Assembly: GCA_028279655.1 (NCBI GenBank)
Contig: JANQNH010000005.1
Location: 144,962-208,961, forward strand
Length of the DNA stretch: 64,000 nt
Source of the DNA: Candidatus Nanoarchaeia archaeon
GTDB taxonomy: Archaea > Nanobdellota > Nanobdellia > Woesearchaeales > JACPBV01
Direction of reading: 5' to 3'
The notes beneath the pieces are model-generated. The model saw only the letters and a list, made by a program, of their open reading frames with translations, was not told the origin of the DNA and ran no database searches. This document shows positions 2,543-48,339 of the stretch, piece by piece. The position numbers and the translations under genes are program-made. How positions within the stretch are numbered: position 1 is the stretch's first letter; every line of letters starts with the position of its first letter.

Positions 2543-3187
2543 CTACATACTAGAACCCATAAAAAAACTCAATATCTTCTTCGCAATATACAATGGAACT
2601 TTGATACTATCAAGTTTAGAACGTCCATCAGCGTGATAATCAGTACCTCCACCAAAAAGAAGACCGTGTTCCTGCGCAATCTTCCGATAATGTGAATTTG
2701 CTTCATCCCTAAAACTGGGGTCATAGGCATATGCACCTATCATGTGAAGGCCTCTCTCGATCAAAGGAAACAAAACTTCATTATCATACTCTTCATAGGT
2801 ATCATACTTCTTACCTTTGCCATGATACACTGCAGGATGTTCACAGCTGATGACTGCACCTGCTTTCTTAAGAAGATCAAATCCTTTAAAAACACCCATA
2901 TAATCATCAACAGGCACCTCATTAGGCCCTAAAGCTTCATCCATCCTAGATAACATACCCTGTAATGAGGATGCTTTTTCTTTCGGATCTGATTTAATCC
3001 CCTTATCTGACCACACACCATAATTCCTATAGCTTTCTTCAAGCTTTTCTTTCTTCTCTCCGTCAGGTTTTGGGATATAGAGATTGATCCTTTCCTCCAA
3101 TACCTTGCCTATCGTATCTATATCTAAAGAACCTCCAAGCTTATCATAGACCTTATCCGTTAACAATTCAGCCCAATGCCGTGCCAT
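2543..3187 (-). CDS. PHP-domain C-terminal half (GGTDYH motif), translationally coupled to 3187..3825
   Basis: GGGTDYHADG resembles the distal PHP histidine motif. There is a 1-nt stop/start overlap (TAATG) with the upstream PHP ORF. Confidence 0.45.
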   Translation of the reverse strand: MARHWAELLTDKVYDKLGGSLDIDTIGKVLEERINLYIPKPDGEKKEKLEESYRNYGVWSDKGIKSDPKEKASSLQGMLSRMDEALGPNEVPVDDYMGVFKGFDLLKKAGAVISCEHPAVYHGKGKKYDTYEEYDNEVLFPLIERGLHMIGAYAYDPSFRDEANSHYRKIAQEHGLLFGGGTDYHADGRSKLDSIKVPLYIAKKILSFFMGSSM

Positions 3188-4013: not shown

Positions 4014-4499
4014 CTAATTTCTTAAGACATCCGGGAATCTTCTTAAGTAATCCTCCATAGCTTCTCTAATCTGCAGCAGGTACTGGGCTTTGAAATCCGG
4101 ATTGCCAGCTTCAAGCAGCTTCTTTTCATACTTAGGAGCAAGATGAGAACTCATTTTAATAAAACTAGCTGCCCCTTCATCTTCAATAGTTGTAATCCCA
4201 GTTTTCTTGATATAATCCGTAAGAACCCTCAATATTCCAGGCCCGTAAGAAGTGCCATTCACCCTAAAGAAAGGGCTTATTGAATTAAGGCTTATAGTTA
4301 TACTTGCAGCAAATGGCTCTTCTAGTATCCCTATGACCATCCTGTCATTCTTAGTTCTAAAAGGCCTGGAAAAATCAATATCAAATCTCCCATTTTCCTC
4401 ATATATTCTTATAGTCTCCTCTAACCCACATTCAGCCTTACCGGTAAAAGCAGCAAAGTGCAGAAACTCACCATTGGTTGCATATATTCTTTCAGACAT
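4014..4499 (-). CDS. Hypothetical protein
   Basis: 161-aa ORF with no recognisable motif. Preceded by the conserved promoter module at 4506..4532. Confidence 0.4.
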   Translation of the reverse strand: MSERIYATNGEFLHFAAFTGKAECGLEETIRIYEENGRFDIDFSRPFRTKNDRMVIGILEEPFAASITISLNSISPFFRVNGTSYGPGILRVLTDYIKKTGITTIEDEGAASFIKMSSHLAPKYEKKLLEAGNPDFKAQYLLQIREAMEDYLRRFPDVLRN

Positions 4500-12759: not shown

Positions 12760-13242
12760 ATGGTTAGTTTTAAACCCCATTATGCAGGATTAGACCAATA
12801 TCTGAGAAATCATCCCTATGTAAGAGATAGATGGAAAGCGCTTAAGCATAGTATAGGAAATCTAATAGACGAGGCAGTAGATCGATATTCAAACAGAACG
12901 ACAGAGCCACCACCTGTTGTCCATTTCACAACAGAACAAAAAGAACTATATTCAGAAATATTCTATACTATTAGAAATAATCCTTATAGGATACTTGCTG
13001 CTTTGATACTAGGAGTGCCCCCTTTAGGGGAAGAGCAGAACCCAAAACTTACTGATTCCATTGATTCCCCTGTCCTTGAAAGAATCCTTAAGAATAATTT
13101 TGTGAATATACCTCAACACTTTATAGAACCGCCAAATCCTTCAGAACAAAACCATTCTCGAATATCAGAAGATAGGGATCTGCTATATGCTCCAGCCCTT
13201 TCAGCAAGATTAGTTCCTACTGATTCATGGAAATACAACTGA
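12760..13242 (+). CDS. Hypothetical protein (160 aa)
   Basis: ORF co-directional with 12047..12721 and shares the same atypical composition. Confidence 0.4.
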   Translation: MVSFKPHYAGLDQYLRNHPYVRDRWKALKHSIGNLIDEAVDRYSNRTTEPPPVVHFTTEQKELYSEIFYTIRNNPYRILAALILGVPPLGEEQNPKLTDSIDSPVLERILKNNFVNIPQHFIEPPNPSEQNHSRISEDRDLLYAPALSARLVPTDSWKYN

Positions 13243-14571
13243 TCATGTGCTGTCAAAATACTTCTCCAGTTCCCAACGAGTAACCTGTAATCTGTACTCA
13301 TCAAACTCAGCCTTCTTGGCAGCTATATATATCTCATATGTATGCTCCCCTAGAACACTCTTGATTACATCATCCTTCTTCAATTTCAAGACAGCCTGGC
13401 CCAGTGAAGCAGGAAGCTTCCCTATCTTTCTATCCTCCAGCATACTATCGTCAAACTTATACACATCTTCTTCTACAGGAGAAGGAGGCTCCATGTTGTT
13501 CTTTATACCATCAAGACCAGCCTTAAGCATTACAGCAAAAGCAAGATAAGGATTACAGGATGGATCAGGGCATCTTAATTCACATCTCGTTGCCTGCTCC
13601 TTTCCAGGGCTATATCTTGGTATCCTTATAAGAGCACTTCTATTAGTCTGCCCCCAACACACATATACAGGAGCCTCAAACCCAGGCACCAATCGTTTAT
13701 ATGAATTCACCTTTGGAGCGACAACAGCAGCCATAGCCTTTACATGAGACAACTGTCCTGCGATAAATCCTTTAGCCAGGGAACTCAACTTATACTTGTC
13801 CTTATCATCAAAAAAAGCATTCTTCCCATCCTTAAACAGGCTCTGATGGACATGCATCCCAGAGCCATTCTCACCATAGATCGGCTTAGGCATGAATGTA
13901 GCATACAACCCATGTGCCTGTGCTATAGATTTCACAACATGCTTGAATGTTATAGCCCTATCCGCCTGCAACAAAGCATCGCCATACTTAAAATCTATCT
14001 CGTGCTGTCCAGGAGCAACCTCATGGTGGGACATCTCAACCTCTAATCCCAAAGCCTGCAAGGCATTTATTATATCGTTCCTCACCTTTATTGCAAGGTC
14101 CTTTGGTGAAAAATCAAAATACCCTGCCCTGTCATGTGTTGTCGGTATCAGTTCTCCATTCTCCCTGGGTTTAAAAAGAAAGAACTCAAGCTCAGGCCCG
14201 ACGTTATACTCAAAGCCAAGATCAGCAGCTTCTTTCAGGACCTTTTTTAATATATACCTCGGATCACCTTCAAAGGGTTTTCCATCAGGCCTGAACACAT
14301 CACATATGAGCCTTGCGCTTGCTCCTTCTCCTGTTTCCCACGGCAGAACAGCATATGTTGAAGCATCAGGTTTAAGATACATATCTGATTCAGCTATCCT
14401 TGTAAATCCCTCTATAGAGCTACCGTCAAACCACGTACCTCTCTCTAAGCTTTCACCAAGCTTATCAACAGGTATTGTAACAGACTTAATCACACCATGC
14501 AGGTCTGTAAACTGCAATTGTACAAACTTAACTCCATCCTTCTCTACCCTTTCTAATAAATCTTCAGTCAT
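13243..14571 (-). CDS. glnA: Glutamine synthetase type I
   Basis: 442 aa. GS catalytic-domain and beta-grasp signatures present (e.g. GSGMHVHQS). SD-like AGGTGA lies 7 nt upstream of the ATG. Confidence 0.9.
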   Translation of the reverse strand: MTEDLLERVEKDGVKFVQLQFTDLHGVIKSVTIPVDKLGESLERGTWFDGSSIEGFTRIAESDMYLKPDASTYAVLPWETGEGASARLICDVFRPDGKPFEGDPRYILKKVLKEAADLGFEYNVGPELEFFLFKPRENGELIPTTHDRAGYFDFSPKDLAIKVRNDIINALQALGLEVEMSHHEVAPGQHEIDFKYGDALLQADRAITFKHVVKSIAQAHGLYATFMPKPIYGENGSGMHVHQSLFKDGKNAFFDDKDKYKLSSLAKGFIAGQLSHVKAMAAVVAPKVNSYKRLVPGFEAPVYVCWGQTNRSALIRIPRYSPGKEQATRCELRCPDPSCNPYLAFAVMLKAGLDGIKNNMEPPSPVEEDVYKFDDSMLEDRKIGKLPASLGQAVLKLKKDDVIKSVLGEHTYEIYIAAKKAEFDEYRLQVTRWELEKYFDST

Positions 14572-14612
14572 GTTATCACCTTCCTTCTTATTATGTTATC
14601 TCGATGCTATAA

Positions 14613-14755
14613 AATGATTTAGGCAAAAAATAACAACAAGGGTGAAAACACATCTGAAGAGGTAATTTCCACACAAAGTGTGGAAATTTCCTTTTGATGT
14701 AGGAATTTACATAGTAAAGTCCATGTTTGAATCCGATGTTGTTGTTATTTTTTGC
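14613..14755. promoter_or_regulatory. Nested inverted-repeat element in the glnA/lrp divergent intergenic region (candidate operator/activator site)
   Basis: The outer 17-bp inverted repeat is GCAAAAAATAACAACAA at 14613..14629, with its reverse complement at 14739..14755. The inner perfect palindrome is AATTTCCACAC-AAA-GTGTGGAAATT at 14664..14688. The glnA TATA (14598..14605) lies immediately beside the left arm. Confidence 0.5.
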
Positions 14756-14922
14756 TAAATATAATCAAGATTAATATCCAAATATTTTCTATAAATAAAA
14801 ACATTTATATACCTTTCTAAGAAAATATTAAACAAAAAATCAGAAAAAAGAGTAAGATTTAAATATATGTTTAATAATCAACCATTTTATTAAAAGAAGA
14901 CTAAACAATTGTATACGAAAAA

Positions 14923-15366
14923 ATGGACCTTGATAAAGTCGACAAGAGCATTATCAACACCCTGATAATAGACTCAACTCAATCCTACAGGGAAATTGCC
15001 AAAAAAGTGAAAGTATCCGTAGCTACAGTTATGCATAGGATAAACAAACTCAAGTCCGAAGGCATAATCAGGGGATTCACAACCGTGGTTGACTACGAAA
15101 AAGCAGGATTTGATGTTGAGATTCTGATAGAACTTAGAATCTCTAAGGGAAAATTATTACAGATAGAGAAAGAGATAGCCCACCATCCAAATGTTTTTGC
15201 AGTTTACGATCTCACAGGAGATTTTGATGCAGCTATAATGGCAAGGTTCAAAACACGAAGACAGATGGACAATTTCCTAAAGAAGATACAGACCTATGAT
15301 TTTATCGAAAGGACTAACTCCAGGATGATATTAAATACCATTAAAGAACAACAGATAGGGGTGTGA
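14923..15366 (+). CDS. lrp: Lrp/AsnC family transcriptional regulator
   Basis: HTH_AsnC N-terminus followed by a RAM domain. 147 aa. Confidence 0.85.
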   Translation: MDLDKVDKSIINTLIIDSTQSYREIAKKVKVSVATVMHRINKLKSEGIIRGFTTVVDYEKAGFDVEILIELRISKGKLLQIEKEIAHHPNVFAVYDLTGDFDAAIMARFKTRRQMDNFLKKIQTYDFIERTNSRMILNTIKEQQIGV

Positions 15367-30569: not shown

Positions 30570-31127
30570 TTATTCCTTTTTCTCCTCGGAACTATTCTTA
30601 GCCGGCTTCTCTTCCTTGGGCTTTTCTTCAGCTTTTGGTGCCTCTTTAGGCTTATCTGCTGGCTTTTCCTCTTTCTTCTCCTCTGCTTTCTTAGGCTCCT
30701 CTGCCTTTGCTTCTGCCTTCTTCCCTTCTTCAGCACCCTCTTCCTTCTTCTCACCAGCAAATAGGTCATCTATCTTCTTAGCACCTTCCTTCACGATCTT
30801 TAGGTTGATCTGTGTAATCTTGTCATTGATCTTATGCCCGCAAACGGTCTTTCTTGTCTTCTGACCTTTCTTAAGCTTTGGAAAACCAACTCCGCCATAG
30901 GAGTATATCTTTTTCCTTATACCCTGTATTCCATGCCTCATAGGAAAACCGCAGAAATCACTCCCGCCTGTGATCTGGAACTCATAACCGTTCATACCAA
31001 AGGAATCTCCACCTATCTTCTCACCGACATTCTGCCCGACAAGAGCAGATGCCTCCTGGTCCTTGACCTCCTTCTGATAGCATTTCCCTGTCTTTGGATT
31101 AGCTATACATAGTTTGAATTGTGCCAT
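30570..31127 (-). CDS. rps6e: 30S ribosomal protein S6e with Lys/Glu-rich C-terminal tail
   Basis: MAQFKLCIANPKTGKCYQKEV...ITGGSDFCGFPMR aligns with archaeal S6e. The C-terminal 60 aa or so is a KE-rich low-complexity tail. GGAGGT lies 9 nt upstream. Confidence 0.85.
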   Translation of the reverse strand: MAQFKLCIANPKTGKCYQKEVKDQEASALVGQNVGEKIGGDSFGMNGYEFQITGGSDFCGFPMRHGIQGIRKKIYSYGGVGFPKLKKGQKTRKTVCGHKINDKITQINLKIVKEGAKKIDDLFAGEKKEEGAEEGKKAEAKAEEPKKAEEKKEEKPADKPKEAPKAEEKPKEEKPAKNSSEEKKE

Positions 31128-31314: not shown

Positions 31315-31626
31315 CCTTGACTTTTTCATCAACTTAGGCTTACAGCTCTCCACTTTATCATACTCAACAAAAGGATACCTCTTACATACAGTAGGCCTGA
31401 AATCATATATCTTACAGCAAGAACCACCATCAAAGAAAACACACCCTTTATCATCTCTCTTTAAGACCTCGCTCTTTATAAAATCATCAAAAACAACGAA
31501 GAAACCCTCCTCAAAACCCTTCTCTTTGATAGCAGAGATATCCTCCTTAGAAAGCTTCACCGTAAGATACCTACAACAATCACCACACCTTTCACACCTG
31601 AAGTTCGAAAGAGTTAGCATGATCAC
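31306..31626 (-). CDS. YkgJ/UPF0153 family small Cys-rich protein
   Basis: CERCGDCC (CxxCGxCC) and C...CKIYDFRPTVCKRYP match the family pattern. Confidence 0.6.
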   Translation of the reverse strand: MIMLTLSNFRCERCGDCCRYLTVKLSKEDISAIKEKGFEEGFFVVFDDFIKSEVLKRDDKGCVFFDGGSCCKIYDFRPTVCKRYPFVEYDKVESCKPKLMKKSRDQ

Positions 31627-32378
31627 TTGTTGCTTAACTTCTTTATATATTCAATAAGTTCAGTAGGTACTGGTAATATTATCGTGCTGTTTTTCTCAGA
31701 AGCGATCTCACCCATGGTCTGGAACAGCCTAAGCTGAAGCCCGGCAGGCTCTTTTCCAATAACCTTTGCAGCCTGTGCTAATTTCTCTGCAGCCTGTGAC
31801 TCCCCTAAAGCCAATGTTATTCTTGCCCTTCTGTCTCTTTCAGCCTCAGCTTGATGAGCCATCGCCCTCTTCATAGTATCTGGCAGTTCGATATCCTTGA
31901 TCTCTATCTTATCTACCTTGATCCCCCATGGATCAGTGTCCTTGTCAACAATAGCCTGTATCTTCTGAGATATCTCCTCTCTCTTCTGCAGGATATCATC
32001 AAGTTCAAACTCACCTACAATGTTCCTCATGGTTGTTTGAGCCAGTTGAGAGACAGCATAACCAAAAGTCTCTACCTCAAGTATTGCTTTATTTGCAGCA
32101 CTCACCTTATAGTAAAGCACCGCATTAACCTTTAAGCTGACATTGTCCTTGCTTACACATTCCTGGGAAGGGACATCCACAGCCTTCACCCTTAGGTCAA
32201 CTCTCTCCCATGTCTGTATGAGAGGAACAATCAACCTGAGTCCAGGTTCCATCATCCCTGTATACTTTCCAAGGGTAAACCTTACCCCTCGCTCGTATTG
32301 CCTTACAACCTTAAGGCTGCTTATCAAAATTACTATCAACCAAAAAATAACGATATTTACTGCACTAAATAATGCCAT
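31623..32378 (-). CDS. SPFH/band-7 (stomatin-like) protein
   Basis: N-terminal TM, followed by VVRQYERGVRFTLGK and a PHB-domain core. Confidence 0.8.
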   Translation of the reverse strand: MALFSAVNIVIFWLIVILISSLKVVRQYERGVRFTLGKYTGMMEPGLRLIVPLIQTWERVDLRVKAVDVPSQECVSKDNVSLKVNAVLYYKVSAANKAILEVETFGYAVSQLAQTTMRNIVGEFELDDILQKREEISQKIQAIVDKDTDPWGIKVDKIEIKDIELPDTMKRAMAHQAEAERDRRARITLALGESQAAEKLAQAAKVIGKEPAGLQLRLFQTMGEIASEKNSTIILPVPTELIEYIKKLSNK

Positions 32379-44939: not shown

Positions 44940-46325
44940 TTATTCTTCCAAAAGCTTCTCCTGCTTCACCCAGAACTCGATAGCAGAAGCAGCCATTTTT
45001 CCAGCACCCATAGCATGTATCACAGTAGCTCCTACCCCTTCACTTCCACCGATGATGTCCCCACCTGCAAAAACCCCTGGTATAGAAGTCATAAGGTTCT
45101 CATCAACCATAAGATATCCTCTTTCGTTGTGAGCTATGTTAACAGTCTTGGTCAAAAGAGGATTAGGTCCCTGACCTATGGCTATGATTACCTGGTCACA
45201 GTCTATCATGAATTGAGAATCTTCAATAGGAACAGGCTTTCTTCTCCCAGATGCATCCTCTTCACCCAACATCATCTGCATGCATTCAATTCCCTCTACT
45301 ACAGAACTACCTATAATCCTGTTCGGATTAGTAAGAAGCATGAAGTGTATACCCTCTTCCTGAGCATGCTTAATCTCTTCCTTTCTTGCAGGCATCTCAT
45401 CAAGGGATCTCCTGTATACCACTGTAACGTCCGCTCCAAGCCTTTTTGCACTCCTTGCTGCATCCATAGCAACATTCCCTCCACCAATGACCACCACCTT
45501 CTTACCTCTCTTAATAGGAGTGGAATAGTCTGGGAATTTATAGGCTTTCATCAGGTTTACCCTGGTCAAAAACTCATTAGCAGAGTACACCCCATTGAGG
45601 TTCTCTCCGGAAATACCTAAAAAACTAGGCAGTCCTGCACCTACACCAATAAAGACAGCATCATACTTCCTTCTAAGCTCATCCAGAGTGAAAGTGCGGC
45701 CAATTACCGAATTCATTCTTATCTCAACACCAAGCTCCTTGATATATTCGACCTCTGATTTGACAATATCCTTTGGCAGCCTGAATTCCGGAATACCATA
45801 CATGAGTACTCCCCCAGAATCATGAAGTGCCTCGTATATCACCACCTTATGGCCTTTCAATGCAAGATCAGAAGAGCATGTTAGTCCTGCAGGCCCGCTC
45901 CCGATCACAGCTATCTTTTTCTTATCAGGATTAGGTGCAACAGCTTTAACATCCCTCTCCTCCATATCAGCAGCAAACCTTTCCAGCTTGCCTATATTCA
46001 CAGGTTCGTTCTTTATCCCCAATATACATTCCTTTTCACACTGGTTCTCCTGAGGACATACCCTCCCGCATACCCCTGGTAGGTTATTGGTCCTCTTGAT
46101 AGTTTTGATAGCCATATAGTATTTCCCGTCTTTTATATATCTGATAAACTTAGGGATATCTACAGAAACAGGGCATCCGGAAACACATTTAGGATTCTTA
46201 CATTGCAGACATCTTGAAGCCTCTTTTTGCGCTCCTTCCTCATTATACCCTAGGTTAACTTCATCGAAGTTCTTCACTCTTTTTTCAGGCTCCTGTTCGG
46301 TTGTAGGAACTTGTTTACTTTTCAT
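44940..46325 (-). CDS. GltD-like NADPH-dependent FAD/[4Fe-4S] oxidoreductase (NfnB/SudA-like)
   Basis: N-terminal Cys clusters CLQCKNPKCVSGCP and CGRVCPQENQCEKEC, and FAD GSGPAG. The first 28 codons of the track ORF read through a structured intergenic element, so the likely ATG is at 46325. Confidence 0.75.
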   Translation of the reverse strand: MKSKQVPTTEQEPEKRVKNFDEVNLGYNEEGAQKEASRCLQCKNPKCVSGCPVSVDIPKFIRYIKDGKYYMAIKTIKRTNNLPGVCGRVCPQENQCEKECILGIKNEPVNIGKLERFAADMEERDVKAVAPNPDKKKIAVIGSGPAGLTCSSDLALKGHKVVIYEALHDSGGVLMYGIPEFRLPKDIVKSEVEYIKELGVEIRMNSVIGRTFTLDELRRKYDAVFIGVGAGLPSFLGISGENLNGVYSANEFLTRVNLMKAYKFPDYSTPIKRGKKVVVIGGGNVAMDAARSAKRLGADVTVVYRRSLDEMPARKEEIKHAQEEGIHFMLLTNPNRIIGSSVVEGIECMQMMLGEEDASGRRKPVPIEDSQFMIDCDQVIIAIGQGPNPLLTKTVNIAHNERGYLMVDENLMTSIPGVFAGGDIIGGSEGVGATVIHAMGAGKMAASAIEFWVKQEKLLEE

Positions 46326-46377
46326 CCTCCTAAAAATGGAAAGTATAAGCATATATAAAAGTTGAGGTTTTAAAAAG

Positions 46378-46508
46378 TATGTAGTTAGCATCCTAAGGTC
46401 AAAACTCAAACAAATAGGACATCAAGCTCGTTGCAGGGGGTTGGCCCCGTAGGGGATGCAGAGCCTACAAACCAAAGGTAAAGAGTTTTGAAGATGCTAA
46501 CTACATAC
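46378..46508. other. 131-bp structured inverted-repeat element with GC-rich core (candidate ncRNA or regulatory element)
   Basis: Arms: GTATGTAGTTAGCATC at 46378..46393, with its perfect reverse complement GATGCTAACTACATAC at 46493..46508. The core is CTCGTTGCAGGGGGTTGGCCCCGTAGGGGATGCAGAGCC in an otherwise AT-rich spacer. Confidence 0.5.
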
Positions 46509-46554: not shown

Positions 46555-48339
46555 ATGAAAAAAGAGGAGGTCAAAGCAGATTATTTTTTTGAAGTAAGTT
46601 GGGAGATATGCCATCAGGTTGGAGGCATATACACAGTGATTAAGTCCAAAGCAGGCAAGCTATATCAGCTATATAAGGAAAAATATTTCTTGATAGGTCC
46701 GTATTATGCCAAAGAAGCAGCTATCAAGTTTGAAGCTAGGAAGCCTCCAAAAGAGATAGAAAGGATATTCAGCGAACTTAAGAAAAACAAGATAGAATGT
46801 TATTTCGGTAAATGGAACATTGAAGGAGTAAAAGTAAATACCATATTGATAGATTTCTCTAAATATATGATCAAGGCAAATGAGATAAAGAGCAGGCTGT
46901 GGAAGGATTTCAAGATAGATTCCTTTAATTCAGGTGAAGAGTTTAACACATGGGTTACATGGGGAACTACAGCAGGTATGCTGTTAGAAGGCCTCAGAAA
47001 AAAACTTAAGGGAAAGATAGTTGCTCAGTTTCACGAGTATCTGACAGGAGCTGCCCTGCTGCACCTAAAGAAGAACAAGGTCAAGATTGCTACTGTCTTC
47101 ACAACGCATGCAACCTATCTAGGCAGGACGCTGGCAAGTGCAGGAATACCTCTTTATGAGGTCATAAAGAAGATCAAGCCAAAGGAGAATGCATATAAGT
47201 ATAAGATTCCAGACAGATATTCTTTGGAGAAAGCAGCAGCACTAAACGCAAACGTCTTCACAACAGTGTCCGATATAACTGCACTTGAAGCAACCAATCT
47301 TGTAGGCAGAAGACCAGATATCGTGCTCCCAAACGGTCTTGATATATCCAAATTCCCAGCATTGGAACAAAGGGCTATCAGCCATTCAAAGTTCAAGACA
47401 CAGATACTTGACTTTGCAAAGGTTTTCTTCTTTCCTTATTACAGGTTTGACCTGGATAATACCCTCCTATACTTCATAGCAGGCAGATATGAGTTCAAGA
47501 ATAAGGGGGTTGACATATTCATTAAGTCATTGGGACAACTGAACAAAAAGTTGATAATGGAAAAGAGCGATAGGAACATCATAGCGTTGATATGGGTGCC
47601 TTCTAAAGTAGAGGGGATAGACAAGACCTTATTGCAGAATAAGATCAATTATGAGGGTGTGGAGAACTTCATGGACCGCTCCCTTGATGATATAAAGGCG
47701 AACATAATAGACTCCATTGTCAACCAGAAGCTCCCTACAACAAGAGAACTATTCAGCGGAACTTTCTACTATCAGATGAAGAAGAAGATGATGGAATTCA
47801 AGAAAAAAGGAAAGCCGCTTGTAGTAACCCATAACCTTGCTGACAAAAATGACATCATAATTAAAGCCTTAAAAAAAGCCGGCCTTAACAATTCCATAAG
47901 GGATAAGGTAAAGGTCATATACTATCCTGTATACCTTACAGGGGCTGACGGACTGATAGATCTCAGCTATTACGATGCAATTATGGGGTGTCACTTAGGT
48001 ATCTTCCCTTCTTATTATGAACCATGGGGATATACCCCTTTAGAGACCGGCGCATTAGGCGTCTCCGCCTTAACAACAGATCTTAGTGGATTTGGAAAGT
48101 ATCTTCTGAAGAAGCATAAGAAATGCAAAGGTATCTGGGTCCTGAAAAGGCAGAACACAAAGGAAGAACTATCCATAGCAAGACTAACAAGTATTATGTA
48201 TGATTATGCAAAGTTAACCCAGAGGCAGAGGATACAAAAGAAATTGGAGGCAAAGAGCGTATCCAATCTGGCTGATTGGGAAAATATGGTTAACTATTAC
48301 ATCAAGGCACATAATATGGCCTTAAAAAAGGTAAGATAG
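46555..48339 (+). CDS. GT3-family (eukaryote-type) glycogen synthase-like glycosyltransferase
   Basis: N-terminal FFEVSWEICHQVGGIYTVIKSKA matches the GT3 Glycogen_syn signature (FEVAWEVANKVGGIYTV). 594 aa. Confidence 0.6.
   Translation: MKKEEVKADYFFEVSWEICHQVGGIYTVIKSKAGKLYQLYKEKYFLIGPYYAKEAAIKFEARKPPKEIERIFSELKKNKIECYFGKWNIEGVKVNTILIDFSKYMIKANEIKSRLWKDFKIDSFNSGEEFNTWVTWGTTAGMLLEGLRKKLKGKIVAQFHEYLTGAALLHLKKNKVKIATVFTTHATYLGRTLASAGIPLYEVIKKIKPKENAYKYKIPDRYSLEKAAALNANVFTTVSDITALEATNLVGRRPDIVLPNGLDISKFPALEQRAISHSKFKTQILDFAKVFFFPYYRFDLDNTLLYFIAGRYEFKNKGVDIFIKSLGQLNKKLIMEKSDRNIIALIWVPSKVEGIDKTLLQNKINYEGVENFMDRSLDDIKANIIDSIVNQKLPTTRELFSGTFYYQMKKKMMEFKKKGKPLVVTHNLADKNDIIIKALKKAGLNNSIRDKVKVIYYPVYLTGADGLIDLSYYDAIMGCHLGIFPSYYEPWGYTPLETGALGVSALTTDLSGFGKYLLKKHKKCKGIWVLKRQNTKEELSIARLTSIMYDYAKLTQRQRIQKKLEAKSVSNLADWENMVNYYIKAHNMALKKVR

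Follow-up and report, generated by a model that had tools for sequence, protein, structure and literature searches.

We analyzed a 64-kb stretch of DNA from a DPANN archaeon (referred to here as the window), with attention to the nested inverted repeat that lies between its divergent glnA and lrp genes. Judged by its distribution among relatives, this unit is a lineage-specific insertion and not a conserved control element of the lrp-glnA spacer. The reading that we favor, with somewhat better than even confidence, is that the nested repeat is a relocatable, structured mobile module of the MITE/ERIC-like kind, belonging to a small family, which inserted into the glnA leader. Its mobility presumably involved transposition or a related cut or copy mechanism. 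For annotation, this means that the true conserved lrp-glnA control region is 14799-14912 and that the striking palindrome is a recent passenger. It is of interest in its own right that, in a reduced DPANN genome, a palindromic insertion has come between a nitrogen-assimilation gene and its highly conserved promoter. Moreover, selection appears to have kept the fold of this module rather than the sequences of its stems between species, which is unusual for a MITE-like repeat and makes the module a candidate, readily tested, for a new family of archaeal RNA or structured DNA.

The gene setting is a familiar one. The window GlnA has its closest relatives among proteins annotated as Woesearchaeota or Nanoarchaeota, and the top NCBIfam match of the window Lrp is the haloarchaeal Lrp model NF041396, at a score below the model cutoff; a DUF5654 gene comes after lrp. 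Divergent pairing of lrp with glnA, or of lrp with amtB-glnK-glnA, also was found in the related loci L004, L053, L055, and L056. In Halobacterium, glnA is among the targets of Lrp (PMC2995911), and Sa-Lrp binds glnA promoters (PMC6801745). Given that the divergent pair recurs in relatives and that these two regulators have glnA as a target, it is plausible that lrp and glnA are linked in their regulation, a link that is already known in kind. The functional pairing of the two genes is real, clade conserved, and already known from Halobacterium (PMC2995911). Gene order near glnA is otherwise fluid in the clade: amtB-glnK precedes glnA in L002 and L055 and not in the window, and aconitase lies beside the glnA region in L001, L002, L004, and L053, with none in the whole 64-kb window. 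As a side note on annotation, the database GlnA calls P0121 (469 aa) and P0004 (458 aa) begin upstream of the conserved TATA box or Shine-Dalgarno (SD) sequence (L004 4001-4081; L001 3001-3037) and probably are overextended at the N terminus.

A sequence-only reading of this DNA had described outer 17-bp arms enclosing a perfect 11-3-11 palindrome. Both were confirmed, and both are above chance. The 3' arm is the exact reverse complement of GCAAAAAATAACAACAA, the two arms being separated by 99 nt, and the inner palindrome (14664-14688) reads AATTTCCACAC-AAA-GTGTGGAAATT. That reading had started the left arm at 14613 and given the unit 143 bp; the arms are real, and the left arm starts at 14623, so that the unit measures 133 bp between the outer arm ends. 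If one bulged G (14622) is allowed, the outer stem reaches 14617-14760. Similarly, the TATA-like sequence that had been noted near glnA exists (TTTTATAG), at 14607-14614 and not at 14598-14605. The window contains two perfect inverted repeats of at least 16 nt within 400 nt, compared with none in 100 dinucleotide shuffles, and the 25-mer palindrome had no occurrence in the shuffles. The region folds at -56.8 kcal/mol (z -9.4) on the + strand and at -49.1 kcal/mol (z -8.6) on the - strand. Neither the outer arm nor the inner palindrome has a second copy in the 64-kb window. Coordinates of all features are collected in Table 1.

Table 1. Features of the glnA-lrp region (positions are those of the window)
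Feature	Position	Strand	Details
glnA, type I glutamine synthetase, 442 aa	13243..14571	-	ATG at 14571
glnA SD, AGGTGA	14576-14581	-	From the sequence
Direct repeat CTATAAA (7 bp), left copy	14607..14613	+	Possible target-site duplication
Segment without counterpart in the sister-species lrp-glnA spacer	14614..14788		175 bp between the direct repeats
Whole structured module	14617..14760	+	Core homologous to L004 6783-6911; + strand folds better as a single strand
P1 outer stem, 5' arm	14623..14639	+	GCAAAAAATAACAACAA; kept in the L004 copy as AGTAAAAAATAACA
P2/P2b 5' strand, conserved motif GGTGAAAAC	14641..14649	+	Pairs with 14725-14733 (GTTTGAATC); GA/GA internal loop
P3 long hairpin arm	14651..14699	+	CATC/GATG, AAGAGG/CCTTTT, then the 11-3-11 palindrome; 6 double-changed pairs, none broken
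P4 second hairpin	14702..14722	+	GGA.TTTAC-ATA-GTAAA.TCC; 2 compensatory pairs
P1 outer stem, 3' arm	14739..14755	+	TTGTTGTTATTTTTTGC; includes the T6 run; extends to 14760
Direct repeat CTATAAA (7 bp), right copy	14789..14795	+	Possible target-site duplication
Conserved glnA/amtB promoter box AAGGTATATAAATGTTT	14799..14815	-	16/17 identical to relatives
Conserved lrp-glnA spacer core common to relatives	14816..14922		From alignment with relatives
Invariant block TTTTGTTTAA	14828-14837		From spacer alignment
Invariant block TAAACATATATTTAAAT	14857-14873		Holds the palindrome ATTTAAAT; from spacer alignment
Invariant block ACAATTGTTTAG	14901-14912		Beside the lrp start; from spacer alignment
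Lrp/AsnC-family regulator, 147 aa, full-length	14923..15366	+	Divergent from glnA

That the unit was inserted is seen most directly by comparison with the sister-species contigs L004-L007, whose GlnA falls in the same 90% cluster as the window GlnA, whose glnA is ~79% identical to the window glnA at the nucleotide level, and which carry the same divergent lrp/glnA pair. Their spacer aligns with that of the window on both sides (flanks 79 to 80% identical) except for a single MAFFT gap of ~189 nt (window 14599-14787), which takes in the whole unit along with the TATA of the sequence-only reading. When the gap is placed at the CTATAAA repeats, the extra DNA amounts to 182 bp, that is, the 175-bp insert plus one copy of the repeat. 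The module may have arrived with ~40 nt of flanking sequence, as a segment of ~182 bp in total bounded by the 7-bp CTATAAA. The lrp-glnA spacer is 351 bp long in the window, versus 162 bp in L004 (counted from the true ATG), 196 bp in L053, 218 bp in L055, and 150 bp in L056, and the unit is absent from the orthologous spacers of L004-L007, L053, L055, and L056. Since every outgroup has a short spacer, the window state is the derived one, i.e., an insertion. On the minus strand, the left CTATAAA gives a TATA-like sequence, TTTTATAG, which precedes the glnA ATG by 38 nt.

The sister species carries a homologue of the unit at another, unrelated locus. In a BLAST search of the insert against the loci of relatives, L004 6774-6908 (also present in L005) matched with 73% identity over 139 nt (E=3.6e-16), and the covariance-model score of the L004 copy was 156 bits. 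This copy lies 1.4 kb past the 3' end of glnA, in the 373-bp spacer that separates a 154-aa gene from aconitase, and its end comes ~15 nt before the aconitase TATA. The homology is limited to the core (window 14625-14755 corresponds to L004 6911-6783), and the flanks are unrelated. On both sides, at 54 nt, the L004 core is flanked by a 9-bp direct repeat, AATTCTTAA, together with an imperfect outer inverted repeat. The core there lies inside a 246-bp unit (L004 6720-6974) bounded by AATTCTTAA, with a tandem repeat, GAAACTACTACACA, present twice on one side. At the aconitase site, L001 and L002 read CAAAAG(G/C)TTTATAAAA and have no element; likewise, no element precedes the window homologue of the 154-aa gene (12760-13242). 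Because L004 lacks the unit at glnA and the window lacks it at the 154-aa-gene homologue, the two species have reciprocal filled and empty sites. Covariance model R1 found only these copies in 149 kb of sequence (the 64-kb window and ~85 kb of clade loci). We suggest that they may represent a small family of relocatable elements, the sister-species member of which is positioned just upstream of the aconitase promoter.

The module itself would be a noncoding, strongly structured palindrome of ~133 to 144 nt, with a long A/T-rich outer stem, a three-way junction, and one long and one short hairpin. The consensus fold comprises 51 pairs in four helices, with all 102 of the 102 cells paired in a two-sequence alignment from which the structure itself was derived; in slid controls, where the partners were shifted by 1 to 3 columns, 42 to 56% of the cells were paired. 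Between the window and L004 copies there are 13 double-changed pairs, 8 of which belong to the inner helices, and no broken ones, although this basis for covariation is two sequences only and the outer-stem double changes are in part a 3-nt register shift. The inner-helix changes, from the window to L004, include CATC/GATG to CGCC/GGCG and TTTAC/GTAAA to TTTTC/GAAAA. The palindrome arms change from AATTTCCACAC/GTGTGGAAATT to GAAAAACCC/GGGTTTTTT, and the inner palindrome is in fact the least conserved part of the module. Stretches that are conserved between the two copies are GGTGAAAAC, CTGAAGAGG, TTCCTTTTG, GTAGGA, and TGTTTGAAYCCKATG, and each copy has a T6 tract at the outer-stem 3' end. When the opposite strand is read instead, 5 cells turn into A·C, leaving 97/102 (95%) paired, and the 5 G·U pairs all favor the + strand. 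Given these A·C cells, the better of the two single strands is the window + strand, which has the sense of lrp and is antisense to glnA. The strand bias of the G·U pairs suggests that what is constrained is one strand, as RNA or as single-stranded DNA. Taken together with the compensatory changes, the one-strand G·U pairs suggest that an RNA-level constraint fits better than a plain transposon with terminal inverted repeats (TIRs).

Once the operator reading has failed (see below), the evidence fits a relocatable, noncoding, palindromic module. Filled and empty sites, direct repeats at the gap boundaries, the absence of coding capacity, and the kept structure all favor this. As a fallback, the sequence-only reading had proposed a small structured RNA or a MITE, and that suggestion is supported by the insertion pattern, the second copy, and the kept fold. 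MITEs are small noncoding elements (~50 to 800 bp) that lack a transposase and have TIRs of at least 10 to 15 bp. The module has such dimensions (core of 133 to 144 bp; insert of ~182 bp), and its TIRs are perfect over 17 bp in the window and over 14 bp in L004, with the arm AAAAAATAACA conserved. Counting against a mobile module, only two copies are known, in two genomes, with no more in the 64-kb window or in the ~85 kb of clade loci. Nor does a direct repeat abut the outer arms in either copy, where a MITE would have a target-site duplication of 2 to 10 bp. The repeat-to-arm distances are 9 and 33 nt for CTATAAA in the window and 54 and 54 nt for AATTCTTAA in L004, and what lies between repeat and core shows no relation from one copy to the other. 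In the data examined, no insertion sequence with matching ends was seen. Finally, neither copy is more than 2 kb from glnA, a placement to be expected only rarely of a multicopy element that hops at random.

The glnA element is not the only palindromic insert in the window. A second one (46377-46508, 132 bp) has 16-bp perfect arms, GTATGTAGTTAGCATC/GATGCTAACTACATAC, with 100 nt between them, and is located between an NADPH-glutamate synthase gene (44940-46352, - strand) and a glycogen synthase gene (46555-48339, + strand). L061 provides an empty site, in which GTTTTGTTTTC is joined directly to TAAAACC, versus GTTTTGTTTTTTAT, the insert, and then TTTTTAAAACC in the window, with a TTTTTA-like duplication. 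The geometry of this second insert (fold z -6.8 and -8.0) is nearly identical to that of the glnA element, with no sequence similarity, and its clean empty site lends support to the relocatable-module reading. The GC-rich core of the second insert, GTTGCAGGGGGTTGGCCCCGTAGGGGATGC (46430-46459), gave a subthreshold Rfam match to CRISPR-DR36 (22 bits; E=0.007 in a 221-nt search); this CRISPR-DR36-like core is a lone copy, with no array. In L058 (2078-2925), a relative of window 46373-46505, the palindromic insert is replaced by a PIN/RHH toxin-antitoxin pair and a 56-aa ORF. The spacer between the glutamate synthase and glycogen synthase genes is an insertion hot spot. A third inverted repeat (31204-31219/31297-31312; 16 nt with one mismatch, 77 nt between the arms) lies in the 495-bp spacer between the genes for ribosomal protein S6e (30570-31127, - strand) and an SPFH/Band 7 protein (31623-32378, - strand). 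No sequence relation was found among the three inverted-repeat units of the window.

Searches for known families returned no convincing relatives of the module. No Rfam 15 family reached its gathering score anywhere in the 64-kb window, and at a permissive threshold the two copies gave chance-level hits only (E of ~1 or more), which differed between the copies; the Rfam families covered include the glnA/glutamine riboswitch, 5S, C/D, H/ACA, and ribozymes. ARAGORN found no tRNA gene in the 64-kb window. Inspected by eye, the defining motifs of the hammerhead, K-turn, C/D, H/ACA, 5S, tRNA T-arm, attC, and ORB elements were either missing or not conserved in the second copy. The module has no coding capacity, the only ORFs that overlap it in the window being of 27 aa or less; the L004 copy has one uncalled 60-aa ORF. 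When the inner palindrome, ATTTCCACACNNNGTGTGGAAAT, was used as the query, the matches were unrelated hairpins only, namely, one Saccharibacteria terminator in genome contigs and 9 unrelated contigs in metagenomes; both are weak negatives, and a poor guide to copy number, in that the query is the least conserved part of the module. Among viral contigs, neither the palindrome nor TGTTTGAAYCCKATGTTGTT had a match; the arm alone produced 36 single chance hits and GGTGAAAACNNNNCTGAAGAGG 2 chance matches in coding sequence. The phage and plasmid collections gave no match. Exact matching of the window GlnA and Lrp proteins turned up no record of either. As for a partner enzyme, no transposase domain was present among the 15 ORFs scanned (10 + 5). 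Neighboring genes considered as transposases, namely, the 160-aa and 224-aa ORFs of the window and the 154-aa and 172-aa ORFs of L004, had no Pfam or NCBIfam match.

The main rival to a mobile module is a small structured RNA gene of ~130 nt on the window + strand, antisense to glnA, present in a single copy or a few copies and moved by local rearrangement. We consider this a serious alternative, if a distinctly less probable one. Such a gene would stay in the glnA/aconitase neighborhood and act either in trans or as a promoter-proximal antisense RNA; by analogy with the nitrogen-regulated small RNAs of methanogens, its targets might be nitrogen and carbon assimilation genes. The structural record speaks for it, in that all four helices have survived 27% divergence, through 13 double changes and without a broken pair, and so does the strand bias, both in pairing (102/102 on the + strand versus 97/102 on the - strand) and in folding energy (-56.8 versus -49.1 kcal/mol). 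The T6 that both copies have at the outer-stem 3' end, the low copy number, and the location of both copies less than 2 kb from glnA and beside the glnA or aconitase promoters also are in keeping with an RNA gene. However, no TATA/BRE is conserved at a fixed upstream distance in either orientation, neither copy belongs to an Rfam family, and the module is absent from the glnA neighborhoods of more distant relatives. It also is nonsyntenic, and its flanking direct repeats and empty sites indicate insertion. Two sequences are, moreover, too few for robust covariation statistics, the structure having been derived from them.

A related possibility, to which we give slightly less credence than to the RNA gene, is that the module would be the founding member of an undescribed structured-RNA family of DPANN (Woesearchaeota-like) archaea that travels as a mobile cassette beside nitrogen and carbon promoters (glnA and aconitase). 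Members of that family would exert their effect as RNA, whether by regulating in trans or as antisense close to a promoter or, to give another example, by binding protein, and would carry the motifs GGUGAAAAC/CUGAAGAGG/GUAGGA/UGUUUGAAYCC.

The location of the insert relative to the glnA promoter bears on what it might do in cis. The box GAAAAGTATATAAATG is near-invariant in the spacers of relatives. Its TATA center lies 25 to 47 nt before the start codon in L001, L002, L004, and L056, which have the exact GTATATAAATG core; L053 and L055 have close variants of that core. The box core is identical before glnA in L001 and before amtB-glnK-glnA in L002. From GTATATAAATG to the end of the extracted region is 37 to 68 nt in relatives versus 245 nt in the window, where the insert separates the box from glnA and leaves it on the side toward lrp, ~232 nt away from the glnA ATG. 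The window box is the sole match in the 64 kb at one mismatch or fewer, the other near-matches having 3 mismatches. Since the spacing in relatives is that expected of a promoter and the window box lies beyond the insert, the insert sits at about the ancestral transcription start. The TATA that the sequence-only reading had assigned to glnA is not the conserved promoter; the latter (14799-14815) is across the unit from it. We also note that the 17-nt box, AAAGTATATAAATGTTT, is nearly identical across lineages in which GlnA is only 77 to 87% identical (window 14799-14815; L001 ~2990-3006; L002 ~92-108; L004 ~4028-4044; L056). Its conservation far exceeds that of a generic TATA box, and a site for the regulator of a nitrogen regulon may lie within it.

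The module is proposed to have landed in the glnA leader, with the conserved TATA box (14799-14815) on one side and the SD of glnA on the other, and the insertion presumably must have altered glnA expression, through either a long structured leader or a promoter born at the junction. One possibility, suggested by the intactness of the conserved promoter, is that the old promoter would still be used, yielding a glnA leader of ~205 nt that carries the module in antisense, with a hairpin of -49 kcal/mol and a T6. A T6 tract is an archaeal termination signal. With such a leader, glnA expression likely would be dampened or made conditional by attenuation. Alternatively, glnA may be read from the junction-made TATA-like TTTTATAG, 38 nt before the ATG, a geometry that would resemble that of L056.

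A stronger version of the former idea, which we regard as improbable, is that the module is a cis-regulatory glnA leader, i.e., an attenuator or translational switch within the ~205-nt leader that starts at the conserved promoter, acting via the hairpin and T6 tract or via pairing of the CACC-containing strand with the glnA SD. The module does lie between an intact TATA box (16/17) and the SD, the predicted folding energy of the minus-strand transcript, which would include a T6, is -49 kcal/mol (z -8.6), and a 32-nt stretch at 14629-14660 is 75% complementary to the SD/start region (14561-14592). This complementarity includes the conserved GGTGAAAAC (CACC on the glnA strand) and may possibly be due to chance; in a long-leader mRNA, the pairing of 14629-14660 could mask the glnA SD. 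However, it is the opposite strand that folds better, the glnA leaders of relatives are 0 to 50 nt long, and the complementarity to the SD is of low purine/pyrimidine complexity and is not conserved. The L004 copy, in addition, is upstream of the aconitase transcript and not inside it, and it is unlinked to the glnA leader.

If regulator sites are to be sought in this spacer, they are better sought elsewhere than in the palindrome. The spacers of relatives have a common architecture consisting of the blocks ACAATTGTTTAG, TAAACATATATTTAAAT, and TTTTGTTTA and the box GAAAAGTATATAAATG. The blocks at 14828-14912 are invariant across four lineages and share TGTTTA/TAAACA half-sites. They, rather than the palindrome, are the better candidate sites for Lrp or another nitrogen regulator (for Lrp autoregulation and glnA control). 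The NrpR operator of methanogens is GGAA-N6-TTCC, placed so as to overlap the TATA box or transcription start or to follow it closely. This sequence is matched at only 2 places in the 64 kb (980 and 63265), no more than expected by chance; the spacer holds no match, and its GGAA/TTCC tetramers in the palindrome are spaced by N2 or N11. The sequence-only reading had proposed that the nested repeats bind the divergently encoded Lrp-family protein, or an NrpR-like repressor, and thereby control glnA; we consider this very improbable, for although the divergent pairing is clade conserved, the window Lrp is most like haloarchaeal NF041396 and Halobacterium Lrp targets glnA (PMC2995911), and the module adjoins a TATA-like sequence, the unit is missing from all orthologous spacers examined (L004-L007, L053, L055, and L056), its homologue stands at an unrelated locus (the aconitase spacer) in the sister species, its palindrome differs even in that copy (AATTTCCACAC to GAAAAACCC), the spacer lacks GGAA-N6-TTCC, and the invariant blocks that are possible operators sit elsewhere (14828-14912). 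Both the absence from those spacers and the homologue elsewhere are outcomes that the sequence-only reading had itself named as refuting it. The unit is not a dedicated Lrp or NrpR operator.

With the Lrp/AsnC operators (Halobacterium Lrp-glnA, Sa-Lrp at glnA, Ss-LrpB, and BarR [PMC2995911, PMC6801745]), the locus shares the divergent lrp/glnA arrangement and an AT-rich control region common to both genes. Unlike those operators, the nested repeat is outside the conserved control region, the conserved blocks being at 14828-14912. With the NrpR system of methanogens (PMC6801745), the likeness is confined to the GGAA/TTCC tetramers of the palindrome; the spacing differs, and the tetramers are not conserved in the homologous copy. 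Prokaryotic MITEs, including those of DPANN and Woesearchaeal genomes (PMC11602168), are closer in kind: the module is 133 to 182 bp long, noncoding, AT-rich, and intergenic, and it has inverted arms of 14 to 17 bp. In one survey, the archaeal genomes of highest MITE density included a Woesearchaeal one, at 105 per Mb (PMC11602168). As with MITEs, presence or absence differs between the sister species at two loci, short direct repeats mark the indel boundaries, and the insertions are beside promoters. Unlike MITEs, the direct repeats are set off from the arms, only two copies are known, and no partner transposase is known; and unlike a plain TIR-dependent element, the interior structure is conserved by compensatory changes.

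The ERIC/IRU sequences of enterobacteria and the Correia/NEMIS elements of Neisseria are imperfect palindromes of ~105 to 155 bp that are intergenic and often transcribed. Their positions vary between related species while the fold is conserved, and they can generate or separate promoters and furnish mRNAs with hairpins. Both are bacterial and occur in tens to hundreds of copies. By analogy with these elements as generally described, the module would appear to be closer to ERIC and Correia than to MITEs, in that its position shifts between species and its fold is conserved. It differs from them in having no sequence similarity and in its host, a DPANN archaeon with TATA/BRE promoters.
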